Source: Candidatus Dormiibacterota bacterium (GTDB taxonomy: Bacteria; Chloroflexota; Dormibacteria; CF-121). From it: a stretch of DNA of 64,000 nucleotides. Under the pieces are notes generated by a model. That model had not been told where the DNA came from. It worked only from the letters and a program-made list of their open reading frames with translations, and searched no databases. The position numbers were made by a program, and so were the translations under genes. The stretch covers positions 12,246 through 76,245 of the forward strand of contig DATBYO010000002.1 of assembly GCA_036513655.1 (NCBI GenBank), in the 5' to 3' direction. Positions 11,224-62,827 of the stretch are shown piece after piece. The stretch's first letter is position 1. Each line of letters starts with the position of its first letter.

Positions 11224-11543
11224 CGGCGGCTAGGAGCGGATGGAGATCCCGGGCATCGTCGCCCGCTCGATCTCGGTTGGCGCCGACTCATCCATGGGCT
11301 GCATCCGGCGCGTGCTCGCGGCGAGGAACAGGAAACGCACCAGCGTGCGGCCGAGGCTCATGCGCATTCGAGCTTACCCGATCGCCTGCTGCTCGGCGGG
11401 TCTCCGCCCGCTCATGGTCGAGGCCGTGGATCCGCGAACGGTCGAGTCACGGGCAGCCCGATGGAAATCGTGCTGATGCCAATCGGAGGGCAAAAGGCCC
11501 CCAGGGAAACTCCGAGCATCGTGCGCCACTTTTGCGACACGAG

Positions 11544-12011
11544 TCAGGTGCCGCCGTCCGGACGTGTGCGGATTTCGCGGCCCAGCGGCTCGAGGGCCTC
11601 GGCGACGGCCGCCAGTTGGGCGGCTGACAGACGCTTGCCAAAATGCTCGCGGACCCCCTGGAGGTGGACCGGCCGGGCACGGCGGAGGCGGCTGGCGCCC
11701 GCCGGGGTCAGGATCGCGAACGTGCCCCGCCGGTCACCGGCACAGCTTCCTCGCTTGACCAGACCAGCCCGGGCCAGGCGGTCGACGAGCCGGGTGAGAC
11801 CGCTGCGGCTGAGGCGAACGCGTTCCGACAGCTCCGTCATTCGCAATCGGGTCCCCGGAGCCATCTTGAGCTGGACCAGGACGTCGAACTCCGCCAGCGT
11901 CATGTCGTCGCTTTTGAGGAGCTCCGTTTCCAGTTGGCGAAGCAGGGCGGCCTGGGCATCGAGAAAGGCGCGCCAGGCGCGCTCTTCGGCGGGTTTGAGC
12001 TCAGTGGCCAT
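11544..12011 (-). CDS. MarR family transcriptional regulator
   Basis: Winged HTH LTLAEFDVLVQL...SRSGLTRLVDRLARAGLV. It is divergent from yceI. Confidence 0.85.
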   Translation of the reverse strand: MATELKPAEERAWRAFLDAQAALLRQLETELLKSDDMTLAEFDVLVQLKMAPGTRLRMTELSERVRLSRSGLTRLVDRLARAGLVKRGSCAGDRRGTFAILTPAGASRLRRARPVHLQGVREHFGKRLSAAQLAAVAEALEPLGREIRTRPDGGT

Positions 12012-12096
12012 GTGGAATAGATTGTCTCACCGAATTGTTTGCAGTAGCGACTGTTGCATATACAACAATTTTGAGAGACCGGGAGGACAAAGCCAG

Positions 12097-12675
12097 ATGA
12101 AGTGGGCAATTGACGCGTATCACAGCAGTGTCACGTTTACGATCCGCCACATGATGTCGAAAGTGCGGGGTCAGATGAAGGTCAAGGAGGGCTGGATCGA
12201 GGTCGACGACGACAAGCTGAGCACGGCCAAGGTGGACGTTGTCCTGGATGCGGCGAGCATCGACACCGGAGTGGAGATGCGCGATAACCATCTGCGTAGC
12301 GCCGACGGTCACTTTGACGTCGCCAACTACCCGACCATCACCTTCAAGAGCACGCGAGTCGAGGGCAAGGATCCCTCCAACTTCAAGCTGATCGGCGACG
12401 TGACGATTCATGGCATCACCAAGGAAGTCGCGCTCGACGCGAGCTTCAACGGCGAGGGCAAGGACCCGTGGGGAAATCGTCGAGTTAGCTTCGATGCTGC
12501 GACCAGGCTAAACCGTAAGGACTACGACTTGACATGGAACCAGGCACTAGAGGCCGGCGGCTTCATCCTCGGTGATGAGGTCAAGCTCGAGATCGGCGTT
12601 GAGGCGATCCCGGCAGCGACGCCCGCCGAAGCCCAGAAGGAAATCGAAGCCGAAGCAGCGCTCGAGTCCCGCTAA
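12097..12675 (+). CDS. YceI family periplasmic/polyisoprenoid-binding protein
   Basis: ATG at 12097 with a GGGAGG SD. YceI motifs WAIDAYHSSVTF and GITKEV. The upstream 295 aa of the track ORF is spurious. Confidence 0.85.
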   Translation: MKWAIDAYHSSVTFTIRHMMSKVRGQMKVKEGWIEVDDDKLSTAKVDVVLDAASIDTGVEMRDNHLRSADGHFDVANYPTITFKSTRVEGKDPSNFKLIGDVTIHGITKEVALDASFNGEGKDPWGNRRVSFDAATRLNRKDYDLTWNQALEAGGFILGDEVKLEIGVEAIPAATPAEAQKEIEAEAALESR

Positions 12676-53862: not shown

Positions 53863-54471
53863 ATGGCGCCCCTGGGACCGACCACACTGAGCGGGAAGCA
53901 CATCCGGCTCGAGCCGATGCGGCCGACGCACGCGGCGGCACTGCTCGAGGCGGGGCGGTCCAGTGAGATCTGGGAGTGGATGCCGGCTCGGCCGGTAACG
54001 GGGGACACGATGGCCGGCTGGCTCGAGAAGGCGATGGTGGCCGAGTCCCAGGGTCGTGAGTACCCGTTCGTCGTGGTCCGCCTCGAGGATGGCCGCATCA
54101 TCGGCAGCTCCCGCTACCTTGACGTTCAGGAAGACGACCGGACCGTCGAGATCGGCTGGACCTGGTACTCACCCGATGCCTGGGGCGGCGTGGTGAATCC
54201 CGAGGCGAAGTACTTATTGATGCGCCATGCCTTCGACGACTGGCGCGCGATCCGGGTGGCGTTGAAGACCGACGTTCGCAACCTCCACTCGCAGGCCGCC
54301 ATCAAGAAGCTCGGCGCAAGCTTCGAGGGCACGCTGCGCAACCAGCGGATCCGCCCCGACGGCAGCTATCGCGACACGGTCGTCTTTTCGGTCATCGAAC
54401 GCGAGTGGCCGGCGGTGAAGCTGGGGCTCGAGCAGCGCATCACACGGCTTACTCCACCGGCCAGAGATTGA
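53863..54471 (+). CDS. GNAT family N-acetyltransferase (RimJ/RimL-like)
   Basis: Internal ATG (MAPLGPTTLSGKHIRLEP...). Acetyltransferase motifs VEIGWTW and LRNQRI. The upstream 103 aa of the track ORF are spurious. Confidence 0.75.
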   Translation: MAPLGPTTLSGKHIRLEPMRPTHAAALLEAGRSSEIWEWMPARPVTGDTMAGWLEKAMVAESQGREYPFVVVRLEDGRIIGSSRYLDVQEDDRTVEIGWTWYSPDAWGGVVNPEAKYLLMRHAFDDWRAIRVALKTDVRNLHSQAAIKKLGASFEGTLRNQRIRPDGSYRDTVVFSVIEREWPAVKLGLEQRITRLTPPARD

Positions 54472-54772
54472 GCGTCGGGTTGCGCCGCGGCGCCTTCGAC
54501 GCGCGCCGCTTTGCGCCACCCTGCAGCACCTGGAGGCTGGGTTCGTCTTTGCGTCGCGTCCGATAGCCGCTGGCGACCCGGGCCGCCGCCGCCTGGACCG
54601 CCCCGATCATTTCCTGGGCCGCCACCTCGGGGCTGCGCAGGGACTGCTCATCGAACGGGACCAGCTCGCTGATGCAGATCTGCCGCTGTGGATCGACGAT
54701 GACGACCGCGACAAAGGGCTCTTCACTTGTAATGCTCGGATGGATCTGTGACCACGGGATGACATTGCCCAT
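54449..54772 (-). CDS. Hypothetical protein (107 aa)
   Basis: ORF only; no family recognised. Overlaps the GNAT 3' end by about 20 nt. Confidence 0.35.
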   Translation of the reverse strand: MGNVIPWSQIHPSITSEEPFVAVVIVDPQRQICISELVPFDEQSLRSPEVAAQEMIGAVQAAAARVASGYRTRRKDEPSLQVLQGGAKRRASKAPRRNPTLNLWPVE

Positions 54773-54818: not shown

Positions 54819-57800
54819 CTAACGCGGGACTTCTTCTTCGATCTCGTCGCGGGTGGACCCGTTCGCCGGCGCCGCCTCCGCCGATGCGGGAATCAGCGCC
54901 GGGCCGGGAAGCCGAATGATGGTCCAGTCCTCGGCCTTTTCGGCGCGATCGGCGAGCCCTTCGTCCTTCGAGAAGAGGATGATCTGGTGCTCCCGGCCGA
55001 GGCGGCCCAGCTCCTCGAGCGCCGCTCGCATCCGCCGGCGATCCGCGTGCACCAGCGCCTCGTCGAGCAACAGGGGTGGTGGCTCCGCGTTTCCACCGAT
55101 GATGCGCGCCAAAGCCAGCCGCTCCAGGAGATAGATCAAGGAGCGGGTGCCGAGACTGAGGTTGTCGACATCCTTATAGACCCGCTGGTCCTGGGTCTTC
55201 ACCGACAGTGCCAGGTCTTCCCCGATGCGGACATCCCGATACCGGCCGTTGGTGATCGGCGCCAGTTGACCCTGCAGCTGCGACTTGAGCCGTGGGATCA
55301 CCGCCCGTCGGACCGACTTGGCCGCCGCTTCCAGGGTGTCGATGGCGAGATCGTAGGCGTGGGCTTCGACTTCGAGCTCCTGGAGCTGTTCGCGGGTGGT
55401 GGCGATCTCCTCTTCGAGGGCGGCGACGTCGCCGGTCTGGGTCAACCGGTCGTTCAAGAGCTCTTCGGCGCGCGCCCGCTCCTCCTGGGCCCGCTCCTTG
55501 GCGCCGCGGTGCTGGTCGCGCTGGCGTTCCAGCTCGGCCAGCGGCAGGGTGGCGAACTCGGCCGCGCGCGCCGGGTCGACGCTGGGGCTAACCTCGGCCA
55601 GCTGATGGTCCAGGTCTTCGACGAGCTGGCGGAGCGATGCCCCTTCGTCGGCGGACGTCGCGCCTCGCTGCCCCTCCAACTCGGCCAGCTTGGCGCTCGA
55701 CGCCCGATAGGCCTCCCCGTGGATGACCCCGGCGTCCCAGGCCTGGGCCGCTCGCTCCATATCGGTCTCCGTGATCCCGGCCGGGCCGTAGATGGCCGCA
55801 AGCTGTCGGGCGTAGTCCTCGGCCTTGCCGCGCTCGGTTGCCGAACGCTGTCCCGGCGCGCGTAGCTGCTCGAGCTGGGCGTCCAGCTGCTCGATTCGGG
55901 TGCGCACCTGCTGGGCCGTCCGAGCGGCTTCGCAGCTGGCAATGAAATCGCGGGCGGCCCCAAGCGCCTCTCGGCGGTCGAAACCCAGCCGGTCCAGCAG
56001 GCTGTGCAATTGCTGTCGAAGCGTTTCGCGGCGCTGATCCATCTCGGATTCCGCCCGCGACGCCTCGAGCGACCGCTGGCTGCTGGCGTTCCAGGCAAGG
56101 GTGTCCTGGGCCAGCGATTCGATCTCTCTGGCGATCTCGTCGACGGCCTCCTCGGTCGGCGCGGGCTGCGGCATGCCCCACGAGCCCACCAGCTCGCGGA
56201 GGCTGCGGCCCGCAAGCTGCGCCCGCTCCTCCAACTCGGTGGCCTGCCGATCGAGCTCGAGTCGGGTGGCGTCGTAGCGCACCTTCTGAAGGTGCTCGAC
56301 GAGCGCCTGCTGCAGTTCCGCCGAGCTCCGCACGCCCCACGGCTGGAGGATTTCTCGCCGCTTGACCCGAGCCTCGTCCTTCGCCCGGAGGCGGCGATCG
56401 ACCTCACGCACGGCCGCGCCCCGCACCCAGATGCCGATGCCGGTCGAGAGCACGCCCATGCCGAGCAGAAAGAAGGCGGCGCCGCTCAGGGGAAGCGGCA
56501 TCCCCCCTTGCAGGGCGAGAAATGCCACGAGGATGGCCATCGCCGTCAGCAGCAGGCCGCCGAGCATCGCCCCCAGGAAGGTGCGCTGCCGGCTGCGGGC
56601 CCGCTCGGCCATCGCCTCTTCACGCCGCATCGACTCCTCCGCCTGCTGGCCGGATTTGATGACGTCGGGCACCTCTTTGTAGCGCGCGATGTCGTGTTTG
56701 AGCTGCTCCAGGCGTGGGGGTAGCTCGGCGCCCGCCCGGCGCCGGGCCTCGAGCGCGACGTTATGGCGCTCCCGCCACTCCGAATAGACCCGCTGGAATT
56801 CCATCTGGCGAGCCGGCCAGTCCAGGTTCTGTCCGATCAGGCCCGGGTGGCGCTCCGCGATCCGCCGCGCCTCCTCGGCCGCCGACTGGGCGCGAAGGTG
56901 AACGTCGGGCGCCTGGGTGTCGGCCACGTTGAGCGTGGAAAGCAGCTCGCGCACAGCCGGCTCCTCCGCGAGCGCCGCCGCGTCGATGCCGCGGGCTCGC
57001 GTCTCATGGCCTTGTGCGTCGGCGTTGAGCTTCTGCCGCTCGGCTTCGAGCTGCTGCACCTGGGCGATGGTGTTCGCGGCGCGACCCTCGAAGTCCTCCT
57101 GAGCCTCCCGAGTCGCTCGCAGGTGGCTGCGAAGGTCCTGGACCTCGGCCTGGCGATCGAGGGGAAACATCGCGAAGCGGGTGTGCTCCTCCTGCCGGCC
57201 GCGTTCCTCGGCGATCACCTGCTCCAGCGCGTCGACCCGCTCCAGGCGATGACGCGCCTCGGCGAGGCGAGAGGCAAGCACCGCGGCCTCGAGCGTTTGC
57301 ACGATCCCGAGCTCCGCCTCGGTCAGGGCGGAGACGGTCTCCCGCTTCTGTGCCAGCTCGTCGACGGCGGCGCGGGCCTGACGCGCCGTCGTGAGCTGCC
57401 GCTCCAGGTCGGTGAGGTGACCTTCGAGGTCGTGAAGTGGGCCGGTGCGCCCACGCGGCTTTCCAATCCGGCGGGCCCGCTCCTGGCGCAGCCGATCGAG
57501 CACGCGCTGCGCCGTCCGGTCGGGATGCGCCGAGTCGGCCAGGGCGACGATCGCTTCCTTGATGCTGCCGGCGTCTTCGAGACGTAGGACCTCGCTTCGC
57601 GAGATACAGGCGGTGTTCGTGTAGATATCGCGGCTGACACCGAGCAGCTGGCGTCCGACTTGCAGGCCACCGGAGGCATCCCGTTCGAAGCGCTCGCCGA
57701 GCTCGGCACCGGTGTTGACGTCGATGACGCGGACCGTCTCCGCGTCGAGATCGCGCTCGACCCGGAGCTGCGTCCCATCTTCCAGTTCCACCTCGAGCGC

Positions 57801-58031
57801 CAACCCGAAGTTGCCACCTTGCCAGGGACGCCAGCGGTCGGCGCGCTCCACCAGCGCCGTCCGGGCGTGATCGCCCGACTGGAGGCCGTAGAGGCCGGTG
57901 ACGATAGCCTCCTGCAGTGTCGATTTGCCCGCCTCATTGGGCCCCACGACCAGGTTCATCGTGGGACCGAAGCGCAGGTCCATTCCTTGCAGGCTGCCGA
58001 AGCCCTCGATCTCGATCCGTGTCAGGCGCAT
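54819..58031 (-). CDS. SbcC/Rad50-like AAA ATPase with two transmembrane helices inserted in the coiled-coil region (YhaN/SbcE-like)
   Basis: Walker A GPNEAGKST, ABC signature LSLGTRSLIYL and Walker B/D-loop LLLDEALVHAD. A hydrophobic TFLGAMLGGLLLTAMAILVAFLAL...AAFFLLGMGVLSTGIGIWV segment sits mid-protein. 1070 aa. Confidence 0.8.
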   Translation of the reverse strand: MRLTRIEIEGFGSLQGMDLRFGPTMNLVVGPNEAGKSTLQEAIVTGLYGLQSGDHARTALVERADRWRPWQGGNFGLALEVELEDGTQLRVERDLDAETVRVIDVNTGAELGERFERDASGGLQVGRQLLGVSRDIYTNTACISRSEVLRLEDAGSIKEAIVALADSAHPDRTAQRVLDRLRQERARRIGKPRGRTGPLHDLEGHLTDLERQLTTARQARAAVDELAQKRETVSALTEAELGIVQTLEAAVLASRLAEARHRLERVDALEQVIAEERGRQEEHTRFAMFPLDRQAEVQDLRSHLRATREAQEDFEGRAANTIAQVQQLEAERQKLNADAQGHETRARGIDAAALAEEPAVRELLSTLNVADTQAPDVHLRAQSAAEEARRIAERHPGLIGQNLDWPARQMEFQRVYSEWRERHNVALEARRRAGAELPPRLEQLKHDIARYKEVPDVIKSGQQAEESMRREEAMAERARSRQRTFLGAMLGGLLLTAMAILVAFLALQGGMPLPLSGAAFFLLGMGVLSTGIGIWVRGAAVREVDRRLRAKDEARVKRREILQPWGVRSSAELQQALVEHLQKVRYDATRLELDRQATELEERAQLAGRSLRELVGSWGMPQPAPTEEAVDEIAREIESLAQDTLAWNASSQRSLEASRAESEMDQRRETLRQQLHSLLDRLGFDRREALGAARDFIASCEAARTAQQVRTRIEQLDAQLEQLRAPGQRSATERGKAEDYARQLAAIYGPAGITETDMERAAQAWDAGVIHGEAYRASSAKLAELEGQRGATSADEGASLRQLVEDLDHQLAEVSPSVDPARAAEFATLPLAELERQRDQHRGAKERAQEERARAEELLNDRLTQTGDVAALEEEIATTREQLQELEVEAHAYDLAIDTLEAAAKSVRRAVIPRLKSQLQGQLAPITNGRYRDVRIGEDLALSVKTQDQRVYKDVDNLSLGTRSLIYLLERLALARIIGGNAEPPPLLLDEALVHADRRRMRAALEELGRLGREHQIILFSKDEGLADRAEKAEDWTIIRLPGPALIPASAEAAPANGSTRDEIEEEVPR

Positions 58032-58061
58032 GAGCGACTCACCACGATGTCCAAAGCAGAG

Positions 58062-59156
58062 TCATTCGTCGAAGGCATCGAGCGCCAGCTGCAACGCGCG
58101 GCCAACGGCCTCTTCCTCCTGGCGGGACCCCTGCTTGTGGTCGACCAGCTTGCGCACCATCTCCCCACGGCTGGTGAATTCTTGAGCGGCGGCACCGAGG
58201 TCGTGGGAGACGCGCGAGTGGTCCTGGAACTCGAGATAGGCGAATCCATCGCTACACTCGGTTGAGAGCATCTGGGGATCGAGGTTCAGCGCCCGGTCGC
58301 GCTCACCCACGAGGCTGGCCCGGAGCACGGCGCCGTCCAGTCGCTTGCTCTCCCGCATCGCCATCACCGCGTCGCGGACGTGGTCGAGGGTCGTCATCCC
58401 GGTGATGTCGATCGTCTCCTGGGCAAACTGCCGCTGGTTGATGTCTTCCAGCAAAACCTGGACGCCCCCACCGTCATCGATGGTCACCAGCGCCGTGCAG
58501 TGCCGTCCGGTCTCGCTCCAGCCAAGCGGCTCCGGGCTACCAGGGTAGGTGATCGAGTCCTTCGTGCCGGCGTCGTGGTAATGCCCGAGGAGCGCATGCC
58601 GGAACCCGGCCTCCTCGACCTGGGCGGGCAGGATCGGCTTGTAGGGTGTGATGCCTGGCGGCACCTGGCTCATGTCGGAGGCGTGCAGTAGCAGCAGGTG
58701 CGTTCCCTCTTCCTGCCGGACGAAATCACGCAGCGGCGCGTCCGGCACGTCGGGCCGCATGAAGCCGGCGGTCCAGATGTGGACGTTGCCGTAGCGGTAG
58801 GCGTGCAGGTCTTCGTGGGCCGCGATGGTGACATTCTCGGGCCAGCGGAGGTAGCGGTAGGGGGAGCTCGCGACGGCCGGATCGGTGTGGCCGGGGGCAA
58901 TCAGTACCGGCAGCCCCGACTGACCCAACGTCTGCACGATGAAGCTGGCGGTTTCGCGAGTCACATGATCCTGTTCGAACAGGTCGCCGCCGCAGGTGAT
59001 CAGGTCGGCCTGCGCCTCGCGGGCCCGCTGGACGATCCGTTGCAAGGCCGAGCGGAGATCCTCGCGGCGTCGTTGGGCGCCGACGCCAAACAGGCGCTCA
59101 CTGGCGAAGGATCGGTCGAGATGCAGGTCGGCGAAATGGAGCAGGCGAAGGGCCAC
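58062..59156 (-). CDS. SbcD/Mre11-family metallophosphoesterase (DNA repair exonuclease, YhaO/SbcF-like)
   Basis: Calcineurin-like motifs LHFADLHLD, GGDLFE and GHYHD. It lies immediately upstream of, and co-oriented with, the SbcC-like gene. Confidence 0.8.
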   Translation of the reverse strand: MALRLLHFADLHLDRSFASERLFGVGAQRRREDLRSALQRIVQRAREAQADLITCGGDLFEQDHVTRETASFIVQTLGQSGLPVLIAPGHTDPAVASSPYRYLRWPENVTIAAHEDLHAYRYGNVHIWTAGFMRPDVPDAPLRDFVRQEEGTHLLLLHASDMSQVPPGITPYKPILPAQVEEAGFRHALLGHYHDAGTKDSITYPGSPEPLGWSETGRHCTALVTIDDGGGVQVLLEDINQRQFAQETIDITGMTTLDHVRDAVMAMRESKRLDGAVLRASLVGERDRALNLDPQMLSTECSDGFAYLEFQDHSRVSHDLGAAAQEFTSRGEMVRKLVDHKQGSRQEEEAVGRALQLALDAFDE

Positions 59157-59235
59157 AAATCCCCCGTAACCACGCGAATTCGGCCTGGCGCGATGGCATA
59201 GGCGAGCGGAAAAGCAGCGCCCATTATAAAGGTTG

Positions 59236-59278
59236 GGCCGAATTTGTTCCGCATCAGCCGGTCCAATTCGGAACAGCC
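59236..59278 (+). promoter_or_regulatory. Candidate operator: inverted repeat TGTTCCG-N16-CGGAACA with flanking AATT(C)GG motifs (a third GAATTCGG at 59176-59183)
   Basis: GGCCGAATTTGTTCCGcatcagccggtCCAATTCGGAACAGCC in the 140-bp divergent region between sbcD-like and the WYL regulator. Confidence 0.4.
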
Positions 59279-59296
59279 TCTACACTGAGCAAGAAA

Positions 59297-60259
59297 ATGG
59301 GCTCCTTCGAGAAGGGTGACCGCGGCGCCCGGATCCTGAAGATCCAGACGTTGCTCCAGGGTAATCCGCACGGCTTGACCACCGGCGAGATCGCCCGCCG
59401 CACCGGGGTCAACCCGCGCACCACCTATCGCGACGTTCGGGCACTCGAAGCCATGAACGTGCCGGTCTACGAGGACCACGGCCGGATCGCGATCGACCCG
59501 AACTACTTCGTCGCCCCGGTCAAGTTCACCCTCCGCGAGGCGATGGCCCTGCTGATGGGCGTTCGCCTGATGCACCGGCATCGTGACCAGGCCGATCCCG
59601 ACGTCGCCGACGCGTTCACCAAGCTGGCGGCGGTCCTCCCGGCGCCCGTCGCGGAGTACGTCCACGCCACCGTGCGGCAGATGGCCGATCGCCCGTCGAA
59701 CCCGACCTATTCGCGGGTCCTGCAGACGATCGCGCTCAGCTGGGCTGGTCACAAGACGGTCCGGATCTGGTATCCGAGCGCGAACCACGAGGCGAAGCCG
59801 CGCGTGATCGAGCCGTACTTTCTTGAGCCATCGCTGATCGGACACAGCAGCTACGTGGTTGCGCGCGATCGCGGGCTGAAGGAAATGCGAACCTTCAAGC
59901 TGGAACGCATCACCCGTGCCGAGCCGATGACCGAGACCTATCAGATTCCTCCAGAGTTCGATGTCAACAGATACCTGGCCGGAGCCTGGGGCATCTTCCA
60001 CTCCGGCGAGCCGGTAGCGGTGCGTCTGCGCTTCTTTTCGCCGGCGGCCGCGCGCGTGAAGGAATCAATCTGGCATCCATCGCAGAAGCTCAGCGATGGG
60101 CCGAAGGGTTCGGTCAACATGACGGTCACCGTGACCGGGACGCTCGAGATCACGCCCTGGATCCTCGGATGGGGTGATGCCGTCGAGGTCATCGCCCCCG
60201 CGGACTTGCGCAAGAAGATCAGCGACGTCGGTACGAAAATGGCAGCGCGCAACAAATAG
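59297..60259 (+). CDS. WYL-domain transcriptional regulator (HTH-WYL-WCX; PafBC/DeoR-like)
   Basis: N-terminal HTH (LTTGEIARRTGVNPRTTYRDVRALE), WYL core (TVRIWYPSANHEAKPRVIEPYFL...YVVARD...MRTFKLERI) and a C-terminal extension. Confidence 0.8.
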   Translation: MGSFEKGDRGARILKIQTLLQGNPHGLTTGEIARRTGVNPRTTYRDVRALEAMNVPVYEDHGRIAIDPNYFVAPVKFTLREAMALLMGVRLMHRHRDQADPDVADAFTKLAAVLPAPVAEYVHATVRQMADRPSNPTYSRVLQTIALSWAGHKTVRIWYPSANHEAKPRVIEPYFLEPSLIGHSSYVVARDRGLKEMRTFKLERITRAEPMTETYQIPPEFDVNRYLAGAWGIFHSGEPVAVRLRFFSPAAARVKESIWHPSQKLSDGPKGSVNMTVTVTGTLEITPWILGWGDAVEVIAPADLRKKISDVGTKMAARNK

Positions 60260-61497: not shown

Positions 61498-61707
61498 CTA
61501 GGCCGCGGCGCGGGGTTGCTTGCCGCAGGCGGGACACGCGGTGCCCGCCTTGAGTTCCGCCCGCTTAAAGGCGTGACCGCCGCAGTGCGGGCAGAGCGCG
61601 CCGGGTCGCAGCGGATGGGCCTGTTCGGCCTTCTGCATCCGCTCGCGCAGGTGACTGTCGTCTTCCTTGTCGATGAAGCGCGGATCGGTGGGCGTCTGCG
61701 TGCTCAT
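61498..61707 (-). CDS. Small zinc-ribbon protein (CxxC...CxxC)
   Basis: 69 aa with CPHCGG...CPACG. The ATGA overlap with the upstream UDG gene suggests coupling. Confidence 0.5.
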   Translation of the reverse strand: MSTQTPTDPRFIDKEDDSHLRERMQKAEQAHPLRPGALCPHCGGHAFKRAELKAGTACPACGKQPRAAA

Positions 61708-62450
61708 GCGGCCTTCAACTCGTGTAGCTCAAACTGCTCGGGCCGGATCCGGTCGCCCAGGGCGCGCCCGATGACCTCCGGATGAAGGTCGACGCCGCGC
61801 TGAAACGGGTGCACGCTCAGAATCGCCGGCGCCGTGCGATCGCCGATCTGTACATCGAGCACCCGCCCATGAAGGGTGGTCATTGGGGCCCAACCGTCCC
61901 AGGTCCGCATCGTGCGCCACCACAGGTGGCGAGCCACGGGTCCACCCATGGCGACGACGATTTGCGGGGCGATGCTCGCCAGCAAGCTCTGCAGGTGGCG
62001 GTCCACACACTGGTTGACGGCGTCGTCGGTGACGAGGTCGGGGTTCTCCGTCGGGCAGCGAACCGCCCAGGTATGGAACGCGAAGTCCAGGACATCGCGC
62101 TTGCCAAGTTTCTGCCCGAGCCGGCGGCGGGCGCCCAGTAGCACGGCGCGCACGAACTGGTAGTACGGCAGGGGCGTGTCGGCGGTCATGTGGTGCTCGA
62201 GCGCCGCTTCGTGATCGAGCCATTCGGTGAACGCCTCGTTGCTCGCGCTGGCGGCGTCCAGCGGGCTCGGACTGATGAAGACGATCGGCGCCTGCGGGTT
62301 TCCGAAGCCGACCTGCGGCCGGCGAAGCGGCTGAGCCAGGCGCTCGCAGGGGCTGTCGGCGCCCCGATCGGACTCCGCGATCGCGCAGCCGTGCAACCGC
62401 TTGAGCGCGTCGGAACCGAAGAACTGCAGGTACTGCTGGCCCTTGCTCAC
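61704..62450 (-). CDS. Uracil-DNA glycosylase superfamily protein (family 4/5-like, four Cys)
   Basis: GNPQAPIVFISPSP (the GxPG(A)-type active-site motif) and the LSVHPF (HPS-like) motif. GTG start proposed at 62450; the upstream part of the track ORF overlaps the rhodanese gene. Confidence 0.65.
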   Translation of the reverse strand: MSKGQQYLQFFGSDALKRLHGCAIAESDRGADSPCERLAQPLRRPQVGFGNPQAPIVFISPSPLDAASASNEAFTEWLDHEAALEHHMTADTPLPYYQFVRAVLLGARRRLGQKLGKRDVLDFAFHTWAVRCPTENPDLVTDDAVNQCVDRHLQSLLASIAPQIVVAMGGPVARHLWWRTMRTWDGWAPMTTLHGRVLDVQIGDRTAPAILSVHPFQRGVDLHPEVIGRALGDRIRPEQFELHELKAA

Positions 62451-62506
62451 GCTGCTGAAAATGACGGGGAGTGGCCGGTGAAGCTTGCGCCCCTTAAGAT
62501 TCCTCG

Positions 62507-62827
62507 ATGGCCAATGTCCCCGCCGTGGACGTCGTCCAGCTGCGAGAGCGGCTTGCGGCCAGGCCCGCGCCTTTCCTGCTGGATGTCCGGGAGCCCTGGG
62601 AGTACCTGGCCGGACACGTTCCGGAAGCGCAGCTGATCCCACTCGGTGAGTTGGAGCAGCGGGTCAGCGAGGTGCCGCGCGATCGACCGGTGCTGGCCAT
62701 CTGCCACAGCGGGCAGCGGAGCCTGGCGGCGGCGGGCTATCTCATCCAGCTCGGCTACTCCGCCGTCAGCAACGTCGACGGCGGCACCGCCGCCTGGATC
62801 GAGCGCGGATACCCGGTCGAACGCTAA
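62507..62827 (+). CDS. Rhodanese-like domain protein (single-domain sulfurtransferase)
   Basis: Active-site loop CHSGQRS. 106 aa. Confidence 0.85.
   Translation: MANVPAVDVVQLRERLAARPAPFLLDVREPWEYLAGHVPEAQLIPLGELEQRVSEVPRDRPVLAICHSGQRSLAAAGYLIQLGYSAVSNVDGGTAAWIERGYPVER

Follow-up and report, generated by a model that had tools for sequence, protein, structure and literature searches.

A YhaO/YhaN-like operon beside a divergent DriD/PafBC-like WYL regulator in Dormibacterota

We analyzed a 64,000-nt stretch of DNA from a Candidatus Dormiibacterota bacterium (assembly GCA_036513655.1, contig DATBYO010000002.1, positions 12,246 to 76,245; hereafter the window), and focus here on three adjacent genes: those for a metallophosphoesterase and a Rad50-like ATPase, which resemble the YhaO/YhaN (SbcF/SbcE) pair of Bacillus subtilis, and that for a divergently transcribed regulator with HTH, WYL, and WCX domains. 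The reading that we favor, and to which we give an even chance of being right, is that of a lineage-specific, locally WYL-controlled DNA-end-processing operon, in which the YhaO/YhaN pair would be activated in the manner of DriD and PafBC, in dependence on single-stranded DNA (ssDNA). DriD and PafBC are ssDNA-sensing WYL activators of a LexA-independent damage response. The regulatory pairing of WYL with YhaON arose within a single lineage of Dormibacterota; the YhaON family as such does not have it.

The phosphoesterase gene (58062-59156, minus strand; 364 aa, GTG start), YhaO/SbcF-like and of the SbcD/Mre11 type, is the first gene of the operon. After a gap of 30 nt it is followed by the ATPase gene (54819-58031, minus strand; 1070 aa), which has a purine-rich Shine-Dalgarno-like GGTGAG close upstream of its ATG. 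The regulator gene (59297-60259, plus strand; 320 aa) is separated from the nuclease gene by a shared intergenic region of 140 bp (59157-59296). The open reading frames (ORFs) and their Pfam domains bear out the three genes, the minus-strand operon, and the divergent regulator that had been described in a first-pass annotation of the window.

The regulator and its association with the operon

The regulator contains, on the plus strand, a winged helix-turn-helix (wHTH; 59333-59482), a WYL domain (59717-59923), and a WCX domain (60008-60244), recognized by the Pfam models HTH_11, WYL, and WCX, all above cut-off. Among the sequences of the Protein Data Bank (PDB) it matches Caulobacter DriD (8tp8; 2.8e-14) and PafC (8e-10), and there is no match to BrxR or CapW at E<=0.01. 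An AlphaFold2 model of moderate confidence (pLDDT 69) has a secondary structure that fits the wHTH-WYL-WCX architecture, and a Foldseek search with this model returns, in order, DriD (1e-17), PafBC (1e-12), BrxR (1e-10), and CapW (1e-7). With DriD and actinobacterial PafBC (6sj9, 7p5x) the protein shares the wHTH, a three-helix bundle, and the WYL and WCX domains. Its identity to DriD is ~23%; PafBC is a heterodimer, whereas the window has a single regulator gene.

The residues by which DriD contacts ssDNA are Y168, S172, R176/R178, R189, Y192, R204, W206, R207, Y240, and R288 (PMC10853764), and we mapped the residues described in that work onto the regulator through a HMMER alignment. Y168, R178, Y192, and R204 correspond to Y159, R169, Y186, and R198, which are identical and invariant in the clade. 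W206, R207, Y240, and R189 correspond to F200, K201, F234, and H183, invariant or nearly so in the clade, and N163 and K167 of the regulator are likewise conservative replacements at ssDNA-contact positions. Counted over the ten contact residues of DriD, four are identical, five are conservatively replaced (four of these invariant or nearly invariant), and one, R288, is lost (L283). The two base-reading arginines of DriD, Arg37 and Arg41, become R41 and R45, again invariant, and the whole recognition helix R41-T42-x-Y44-R45-D46 (R-T-T-Y-R-D) is invariant across the clade. These comparisons suggest an ssDNA-sensing, DriD/PafBC-like homodimer, which is the best-supported reading of the protein.

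Many gene calls among the WYL homologues (P0270-P0382) are 330-356 aa long instead of 320 aa. At least two of the longer calls, P0375 and P0376, which come from the loci that we denote L162 and L161, have the MGSFEK start of the window protein, and the additional residues are therefore not N-terminal; a conserved ATG/GTG and variable upstream DNA support the 320-aa start in the window. The PADLOC model "Cas3c" (PDLC01766) matches the entire regulator (8.7e-79) at model positions 6-313 of 1009, a match confined to the portion of the model that represents a WYL regulator. Several WYL homologues from JGI are named "CRISPR-associated endonuclease/helicase Cas3." The match and the Cas3 names are probably annotation artifacts that stem from WYL-Cas3 fusions in the model seed.

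Our close-relative set comprises 80 metagenomic relatives in which the nuclease is 66-86% identical to the window protein; the closest homologues come from metagenome-assembled genomes of Candidatus Dormibacteraeota. In all 71 close relatives with both gene starts recovered, WYL and nuclease genes are divergently oriented, and every locus with enough upstream DNA has the WYL gene. Since these loci are broadly syntenic, the linkage among them says little when taken alone. L161, L162, and a third locus, L081, also have the WYL gene, with the protein 71% identical in the first two. In L161 and L162 the trio of genes is intact and both outer sides differ from the window, with an SIS or UDG gene in place of the SDR gene and a methyltransferase or P5CR gene in place of the GNAT gene; many other loci are without the SDR gene between WYL and UDG.

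The shared intergenic region

Our intergenic alignment comprises 55 unique sequences, and column conservation was computed over 62 relatives, with the flanking genes as benchmarks (0.95 for codon positions 1 and 2, 0.73 for third positions). The half of the region next to the nuclease gene is a 74-bp non-coding block (59157-59230), a putative leader or promoter-proximal region, with a mean conservation of 0.93. The remainder (59231-59296) has a conservation of 0.73, equal to that of third codon positions, with islands at 59240-59253 and 59281-59288.

A perfect TATAAT at 59223-59228 on the minus strand (CCATTATA on the plus strand) is the putative -10 element of the operon: Its columns are 1.00 conserved, and it is kept in the divergent loci L161 and L162. 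A consensus scan gave no full sigma-70 promoter, since TATAAT is not accompanied by a -35 hexamer. A Shine-Dalgarno GGGGGA (59160-59165, minus strand), near-invariant in relatives, lies 3 nt upstream of the GTG of the nuclease gene. On the plus strand, a -10-like TACACT (59281-59286) lies 10 nt upstream of the ATG of the WYL gene. In relatives it reads TA(G/C/A)ACT and sits 10-12 nt before the WYL start codon, and the columns 59281-59288 are ~0.92-0.97 conserved, the third base excepted. This putative WYL -10 suggests a leaderless or near-leaderless mRNA.

The best conserved candidate operator in the alignment is a dyad, GGCTGA-N12-TCAGCC, at 59236-59259, which corresponds to about -20 to -43 relative to the putative promoter of the operon. 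The columns of its core, (A/G)TTT(G/A)TTCCGAA, are ~0.9 conserved. All six pairs of the dyad are formed in 23 of the 55 unique relatives and five of the six in another 18, compared with 1.3% and 16% of shuffles, a control that ignores the relatedness of the 55 sequences; the window itself has five of the six pairs (GGCcGA...TCAGCC). In a subgroup variant, GCCCGA-N11-TCTGGC, both bases of dyad pair 2 have changed and the pairing is preserved. In promoters that have no -35 hexamer, DriD binds across the -35 position (PMC13004042), and the likeness of the window to DriD and PafBC, which includes the two base-reading arginines and most of the ssDNA-contact residues, extends to this candidate site over the -35 of a promoter without a -35 hexamer. 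No DriD-type CGxC-N7-GxCG box was seen in the consensus when this was read by eye; a GCGC-N7-GCGC at ~59207-59221 of the consensus, just downstream of TATAAT, has the geometry of the DriD box with the wrong bases. We found no further copies of the conserved intergenic blocks in the window or in ~860 kb of Dormibacterota DNA from homologous loci, a weak search because this DNA is largely the same locus repeated.

In the mechanism that we propose, ssDNA from damage or end resection would enter the WYL/WCX pocket of the homodimeric regulator. The dimer would bind over the missing -35, at the block 59236-59259, and recruit RNA polymerase to the TATAAT promoter, and the operon would thereby be switched on; through the back-to-back promoter the regulator would probably also control its own gene. 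Compared with DriD and PafBC, which act globally, such a regulator is apparently local and dedicated to one adjacent operon, as judged over the 64 kb covered.

The 74-bp block is non-coding, since relatives carry scattered single-nucleotide indels in it, and indels at several positions rule out a small ORF. No structured RNA is indicated in this block or in the other leader, the fold energies being no better than those of shuffles (z = -0.02 and -0.23, respectively), and an Rfam search of the block found no family. The constraint on this leader is of the strength seen at codon positions 1 and 2.

The first-pass annotation had put forward two other elements of the shared region as operators, an inverted repeat TGTTCCG/CGGAACA with a spacer of 16 nt and three AATT(C)GG motifs. 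Both are present in the window. The inverted repeat, TGTTCCG-N17-CGGAACA, has its arms at 59245-59251 and 59269-59275 and a spacer of 17 nt, not 16; by our own rough estimate, a random 140-bp sequence would hold ~0.25 perfect 7-bp inverted repeats whose arms are no more than 30 nt apart, and the repeat alone is therefore not significant. Exact copies of AATTCGG lie at 59177-59183 (plus strand), 59238-59244 (minus strand), and 59265-59271 (plus strand), and since the whole window has only six copies (6.4 expected), their local clustering is real in this genome. As operators, neither element survived the comparison with relatives. The inverted repeat is mostly lineage-private and is perfect in 2 of the 55 unique relatives, the columns of its right arm have conservation values of 0.32-0.89 (mean ~0.6, below the 0.73 of third codon positions), and a copy of AATTCGG is absent from 45 of the 55. 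These sites vary while the recognition helix does not, which makes them unlikely operators, and we rejected them as clade-wide ones.

The ATPase and the phosphoesterase

The ATPase is an SMC/Rad50-like protein of the YhaN/SbcE family (COG4717, Pfam AAA_27), with a split ABC head and two long coiled-coil arms. Its N-terminus matches the Pfam models AAA_23 (58.2 bits, cut-off 27), AAA_27 (42.3 bits, cut-off 22), and SMC_N (40.5 bits); at the C-terminus, SbcC_Walker_B reaches 23.9 bits, under its cut-off of 27. In the PDB search the matches are to Rad50 head domains only, the C-terminal region aligning to the Rad50 C-lobe, and the curated Rad50 model scores well under its cut-off. Read from the translation, the head motifs are a Walker A/P-loop GPNEAGKST (aa 30-38; 57918-57944, minus strand) and, within 55056-55160 on the same strand, an ABC signature-like LSLGT (aa 958-962) and a Walker B LLLDEA (aa 987-992). 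In a 14-sequence alignment of the distant family, residues G30, N32, E33, G35, K36, S37, and T38 of the P-loop are invariant, as are the S, the D, and nearby residues of the signature and Walker B. The AlphaFold2 model (mean pLDDT 73) has globular heads at residues 1-190 and 931-1040 with long helices between them. Cysteines occur only at positions 142 and 700, and CxxC is absent from the whole protein.

The family to which this ATPase belongs is large, spread over many phyla, and almost unstudied. An exhaustive HMMER search of 1.8 billion cluster representatives gave 5,373 clusters at 50% identity (E<=1e-10), and homologues carry the source name "YhaN"; a literature search on COG4717/AAA_27 gave nothing useful. 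For genomic comparison we used a distant set, for which a distant member of the family served as the seed and each GTDB species was represented by one genome. It contains at least 80 loci from Chloroflexota, Actinomycetota, Bacillota, Eremiobacterota, Acidobacteriota, Armatimonadota, Patescibacteria, and other phyla, and in most of the 80 listed the phosphoesterase gene is immediately upstream of the ATPase gene.

A two-helix hydrophobic hairpin replaces the zinc hook at the coiled-coil apex and is a hallmark of the family. In the window protein it spans aa 484-537 (56421-56582, minus strand) and consists of two predicted transmembrane (TM) helices. The only strongly hydrophobic segments of the ATPase are aa 484-507 and 515-537 (Kyte-Doolittle, 19-residue maximum 2.5); the flanks of the hairpin are rich in Arg and Lys, with six and nine basic residues, and its 8-residue loop, QGGMPLPL, is uncharged. 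AlphaFold2 places helices at 454-508 and 514-565 with a 5-residue turn between them. Hydropathy, charge, and the model all locate here the two mid-coiled-coil helices that had been proposed in the first-pass annotation at around nt 56400-56600. The accompanying view that the architecture is uncommon has to be given up: A hydrophobic mid-protein segment of 40-50 residues occurs in 100 of 125 full-length distant representatives, and 58 out of 61 full-length ATPases of distant-set loci have a hydrophobic segment, typically at 45-55% of their length. The hairpin is therefore the norm of the family across phyla, and the hydrophobic center has already been described (PMC2811018). As a variant of the zinc-hook apex of Rad50 the membrane hairpin is interesting, but it is a property of the whole family and not of this locus. 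About one-fifth of the distant YhaN-like representatives are without the hairpin, and in P0181 and P0189 its place is taken by a central amphipathic helix rich in Arg. Two giant proteins, P0151 and P0209 (~2,200 aa), have the hairpin around residue 700-750.

SbcE (YhaN) of B. subtilis is SMC-like, most similar to SbcC, and without CxxC, and its central domain is unique, conserved, rich in hydrophobic residues, and insoluble; a role of SbcE/SbcF in double-strand-break repair and in transformation/competence, and a physical complex of the two proteins, are known from that species only, through genetics and yeast two-hybrid (Krishnamurthy et al. 2010, PMC2811018). The window pair has the same nuclease-then-ATPase order, the AAA_27 match is found in both systems, and the ATPases are alike in their coiled-coil arms of ~300 aa, the missing CxxC hook, and the conserved hydrophobic central domain. 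The comparison with YhaN/SbcE made in the first-pass annotation was therefore apt. The differences are that the identity of the window ATPase to members outside the Dormibacterota cluster falls to about 25-35%, that the window nuclease has lost the His of motif III, that a 107-aa ORF and no yhaM-like exoribonuclease gene lies downstream of the ATPase gene, and that the window has a WYL regulator, which none of the Bacillota loci among those listed has. We propose that the hairpin would span the membrane and leave the ATPase heads and both arms on the cytoplasmic side, the placement of the arms following from the positive-inside rule. The complex would then handle DNA ends on or close to the membrane, a role suggested earlier for SbcE/SbcF of B. 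subtilis.

With E. coli SbcCD and archaeal and eukaryotic Mre11-Rad50, the window pair shares a split ABC head, an antiparallel coiled coil, and a calcineurin-like phosphoesterase partner. It differs from them in the hairpin that takes the place of the zinc hook, in the low scores of the curated SbcD and Rad50 models, both far under their cut-offs, and in the active site of the nuclease. The nuclease matches Pfam Metallophos at 27.7 bits (cut-off 21.5); TIGR00619 (sbcd) gives 41 bits against a cut-off of 77.65, the PRK10966 and Mre11 models are likewise sub-threshold, and the PDB match to E. coli SbcD is weak. Motifs I (DLH), II (GD), IV (H158), and V (GHYH) are present and are conserved in a 71-sequence phosphoesterase alignment, whereas motif III (aa 89-92; 58881-58892, minus strand) is degenerate, with GHTD instead of GNHD. 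Of the 71 sequences of the wider family, 53 have N at column 90 and 64 have H at column 91. The 80 close relatives have GHAD (64), GNAD (11), GNRD (3), GHSD (2), and GDAD (1), and none of the 80 has the His at column 91.

The motif-III His of Mre11/SbcD is catalytic, and its substitution gives an Mre11 that is nuclease-deficient and structurally competent. Since this His is absent clade-wide, the window nuclease is not to be filed as a canonical active SbcD, and its chemistry may be weakened or altered; the neighboring His in GHAD may or may not compensate for the loss. A more speculative reading, which we regard as quite doubtful, takes the loss further: An SbcE/SbcF complex without the motif-III His, placed under an ssDNA-sensing WYL switch, would be a membrane tether or sensor for DNA ends, induced by damage or by DNA entry, rather than a classical end-resecting nuclease. 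If this were true, the complex might, for example, hold broken chromosome ends or incoming DNA at the membrane, and a second layer of control would lie behind the conserved 74-bp leader. Within the nuclease coding sequence there is also an antisense, sub-threshold Rfam match to Twister-sister (59035-59111, plus strand; 20.7 bits against a gathering threshold of 34, E = 0.05), which we took as chance.

Competing explanations and the setting of the locus

Several observations weigh against local, ssDNA-dependent activation of the operon by the WYL protein. Of the 80 distant-set loci listed, 79 have no WYL gene within 8 kb, as searched by phmmer, by a clade HMM with --max, and by a Pfam scan of 108 upstream ORFs; the sole WYL-bearing locus, L081, is from Dormibacterota and orthologous to that of the window. 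Four other Dormibacterota loci, which have more distant yhaON-like pairs, are among the 79. Because of its absence from the 79 loci, the WYL link is possibly inherited synteny. In the intergenic region, conservation is strongest downstream of TATAAT, in the 74-bp block, where a repressor site or an mRNA leader would more typically lie. Only 23 of the 55 relatives have the candidate dyad in perfect form; it is imperfect in the window and unrecognizable in L161 and L162 despite an unchanged recognition helix, and its half-sites are spaced 18 bp center to center compared with 11 bp in DriD. The promoters are putative, being assigned by conservation only, and the TM insertion of the hairpin is a prediction from hydropathy and a model.

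The first-pass annotation had tied its proposal to the co-occurrence of orthologous operons with a WYL gene. This co-occurrence is not seen outside the Dormibacterota lineage of the window (79 of 80 loci), which speaks in part against the proposal, and inside that lineage the gene is always adjacent. WYL linkage is thus rejected as a family-wide trait: The association is a lineage-specific acquisition, compatible with local regulation and not required by the YhaON family.

The strongest competitor to activation is repression, which we consider unlikely and yet worth real weight. The WYL protein would be a repressor of the CapW/BrxR type on the -35 block and/or the 59157-59230 leader, and binding of ssDNA would release the operon. 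CapW and BrxR, the WYL repressors of CBASS and BREX, belong to the same HTH-WYL-WCX homodimer class, their genes adjoin the operons that they control, and CapW senses ssDNA; divergent genes with a short shared region are also the layout of CapW-CBASS (PMC9122588, PMC11662680). Repression is also favored by the position of the most conserved DNA, at the -10 and downstream of it, the GCGC-N7-GCGC included. The perfect -10 of the operon might be active alone, but the absence of a -35 hexamer is shared with the activator-dependent DriD and PafBC promoters. BrxR and CapW are indeed recovered as structural relatives, but only as such: Their identity to the regulator is 11-16%, Foldseek places them 7-10 orders of magnitude weaker, and the sequence search, which did not find them at E<=0.01, puts the protein nearer the activators DriD and PafC. 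The genes that they control are defense systems, whereas those of the window are not a recognized one.

A lack of any functional link, the next explanation in rank, is in our judgment about as unlikely. The arrangement would be inherited synteny, and the WYL protein would regulate itself and/or a damage regulon elsewhere, as the global PafBC and DriD do. PafBC may control the mycobacterial homologues Rv1277/Rv1278, an assumption that we did not find confirmed in the literature and do not use as evidence. That none of the 79 homologous operons outside the lineage, among the loci listed, has a WYL neighbor fits this explanation, as does the finding that the WYL-linked loci are all fairly close relatives (nuclease at least 66%, WYL at least 71% identical). 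The failure of the earlier repeats to be conserved and the single copy of the conserved intergenic blocks, in the window and in homologous loci, point the same way. However, the trio stays together while outer genes are replaced in L161, L162, and the loci without the SDR gene, the constrained blocks lie between the two putative -10 elements of the shared region, and DriD-type regulators typically have a site in their own promoter region, which is here the shared region (PMC10853764).

The remaining explanation, an anti-phage defense module in which an SMC-like ATPase and a nuclease, Lamassu-like or new, would be under a WYL defense regulator, is highly improbable: WYL regulators often accompany defense systems (PMC9122601), and the PADLOC models LmuB (1.2e-15), GajA, and PtuA match the ATPase, but most of these matches fall on the generic P-loop head (residues 1-50), the nuclease has no PADLOC match, the matches of the WYL protein are to generic WYL models and to Cas3c in its WYL part, no LmuA-type effector or other defense gene is found among the neighbors, and the two genes form a syntenic core pair in many phyla. 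The neighbors are housekeeping genes (DUF885, subtilase, a MASE9/GGDEF pair, GNAT, SDR, and UDG-like), and the GC content of the window is flat at ~67% with no compositional break at the locus. We rejected a defense island on these neighbors, the flat GC, and the partial PADLOC matches, and the "defense module" of the first-pass annotation falls with it.

The locus is a fairly ordinary addition, in an uncultured phylum, to the known SbcE/SbcF and DriD/PafBC-class families. What it adds is modest, holds little surprise for the specialist, and opens no question of long standing: a WYL regulator of the DriD/PafBC kind that apparently serves a single neighboring repair operon in that phylum, a clade-wide change in the active site of the nuclease, and a strongly constrained non-coding leader.

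The 107-aa ORF downstream of the ATPase gene (54449-54772, minus strand) lies 46 nt from it, has a basic C-terminal tail, and is a possible third gene of the operon. A Pfam scan of this ORF gave no match, and its N-terminal part has tblastn identities of 55-96% in relatives. It is oriented differently in L161 and in another locus, L080, so its membership of the module is uncertain. On the other side, the trio has further genes of DNA metabolism in its vicinity. A UDG-superfamily gene lies beside or near the WYL gene in the window (61704-62642) and in most relatives. An RmuC gene is found 2-4 kb past the WYL gene in L161 and L162, and L162 also has an IS605 OrfB/TnpB gene; the stretches concerned are 12667-13788 of L161 and 11384-12247 and 12985-14130 of L162.

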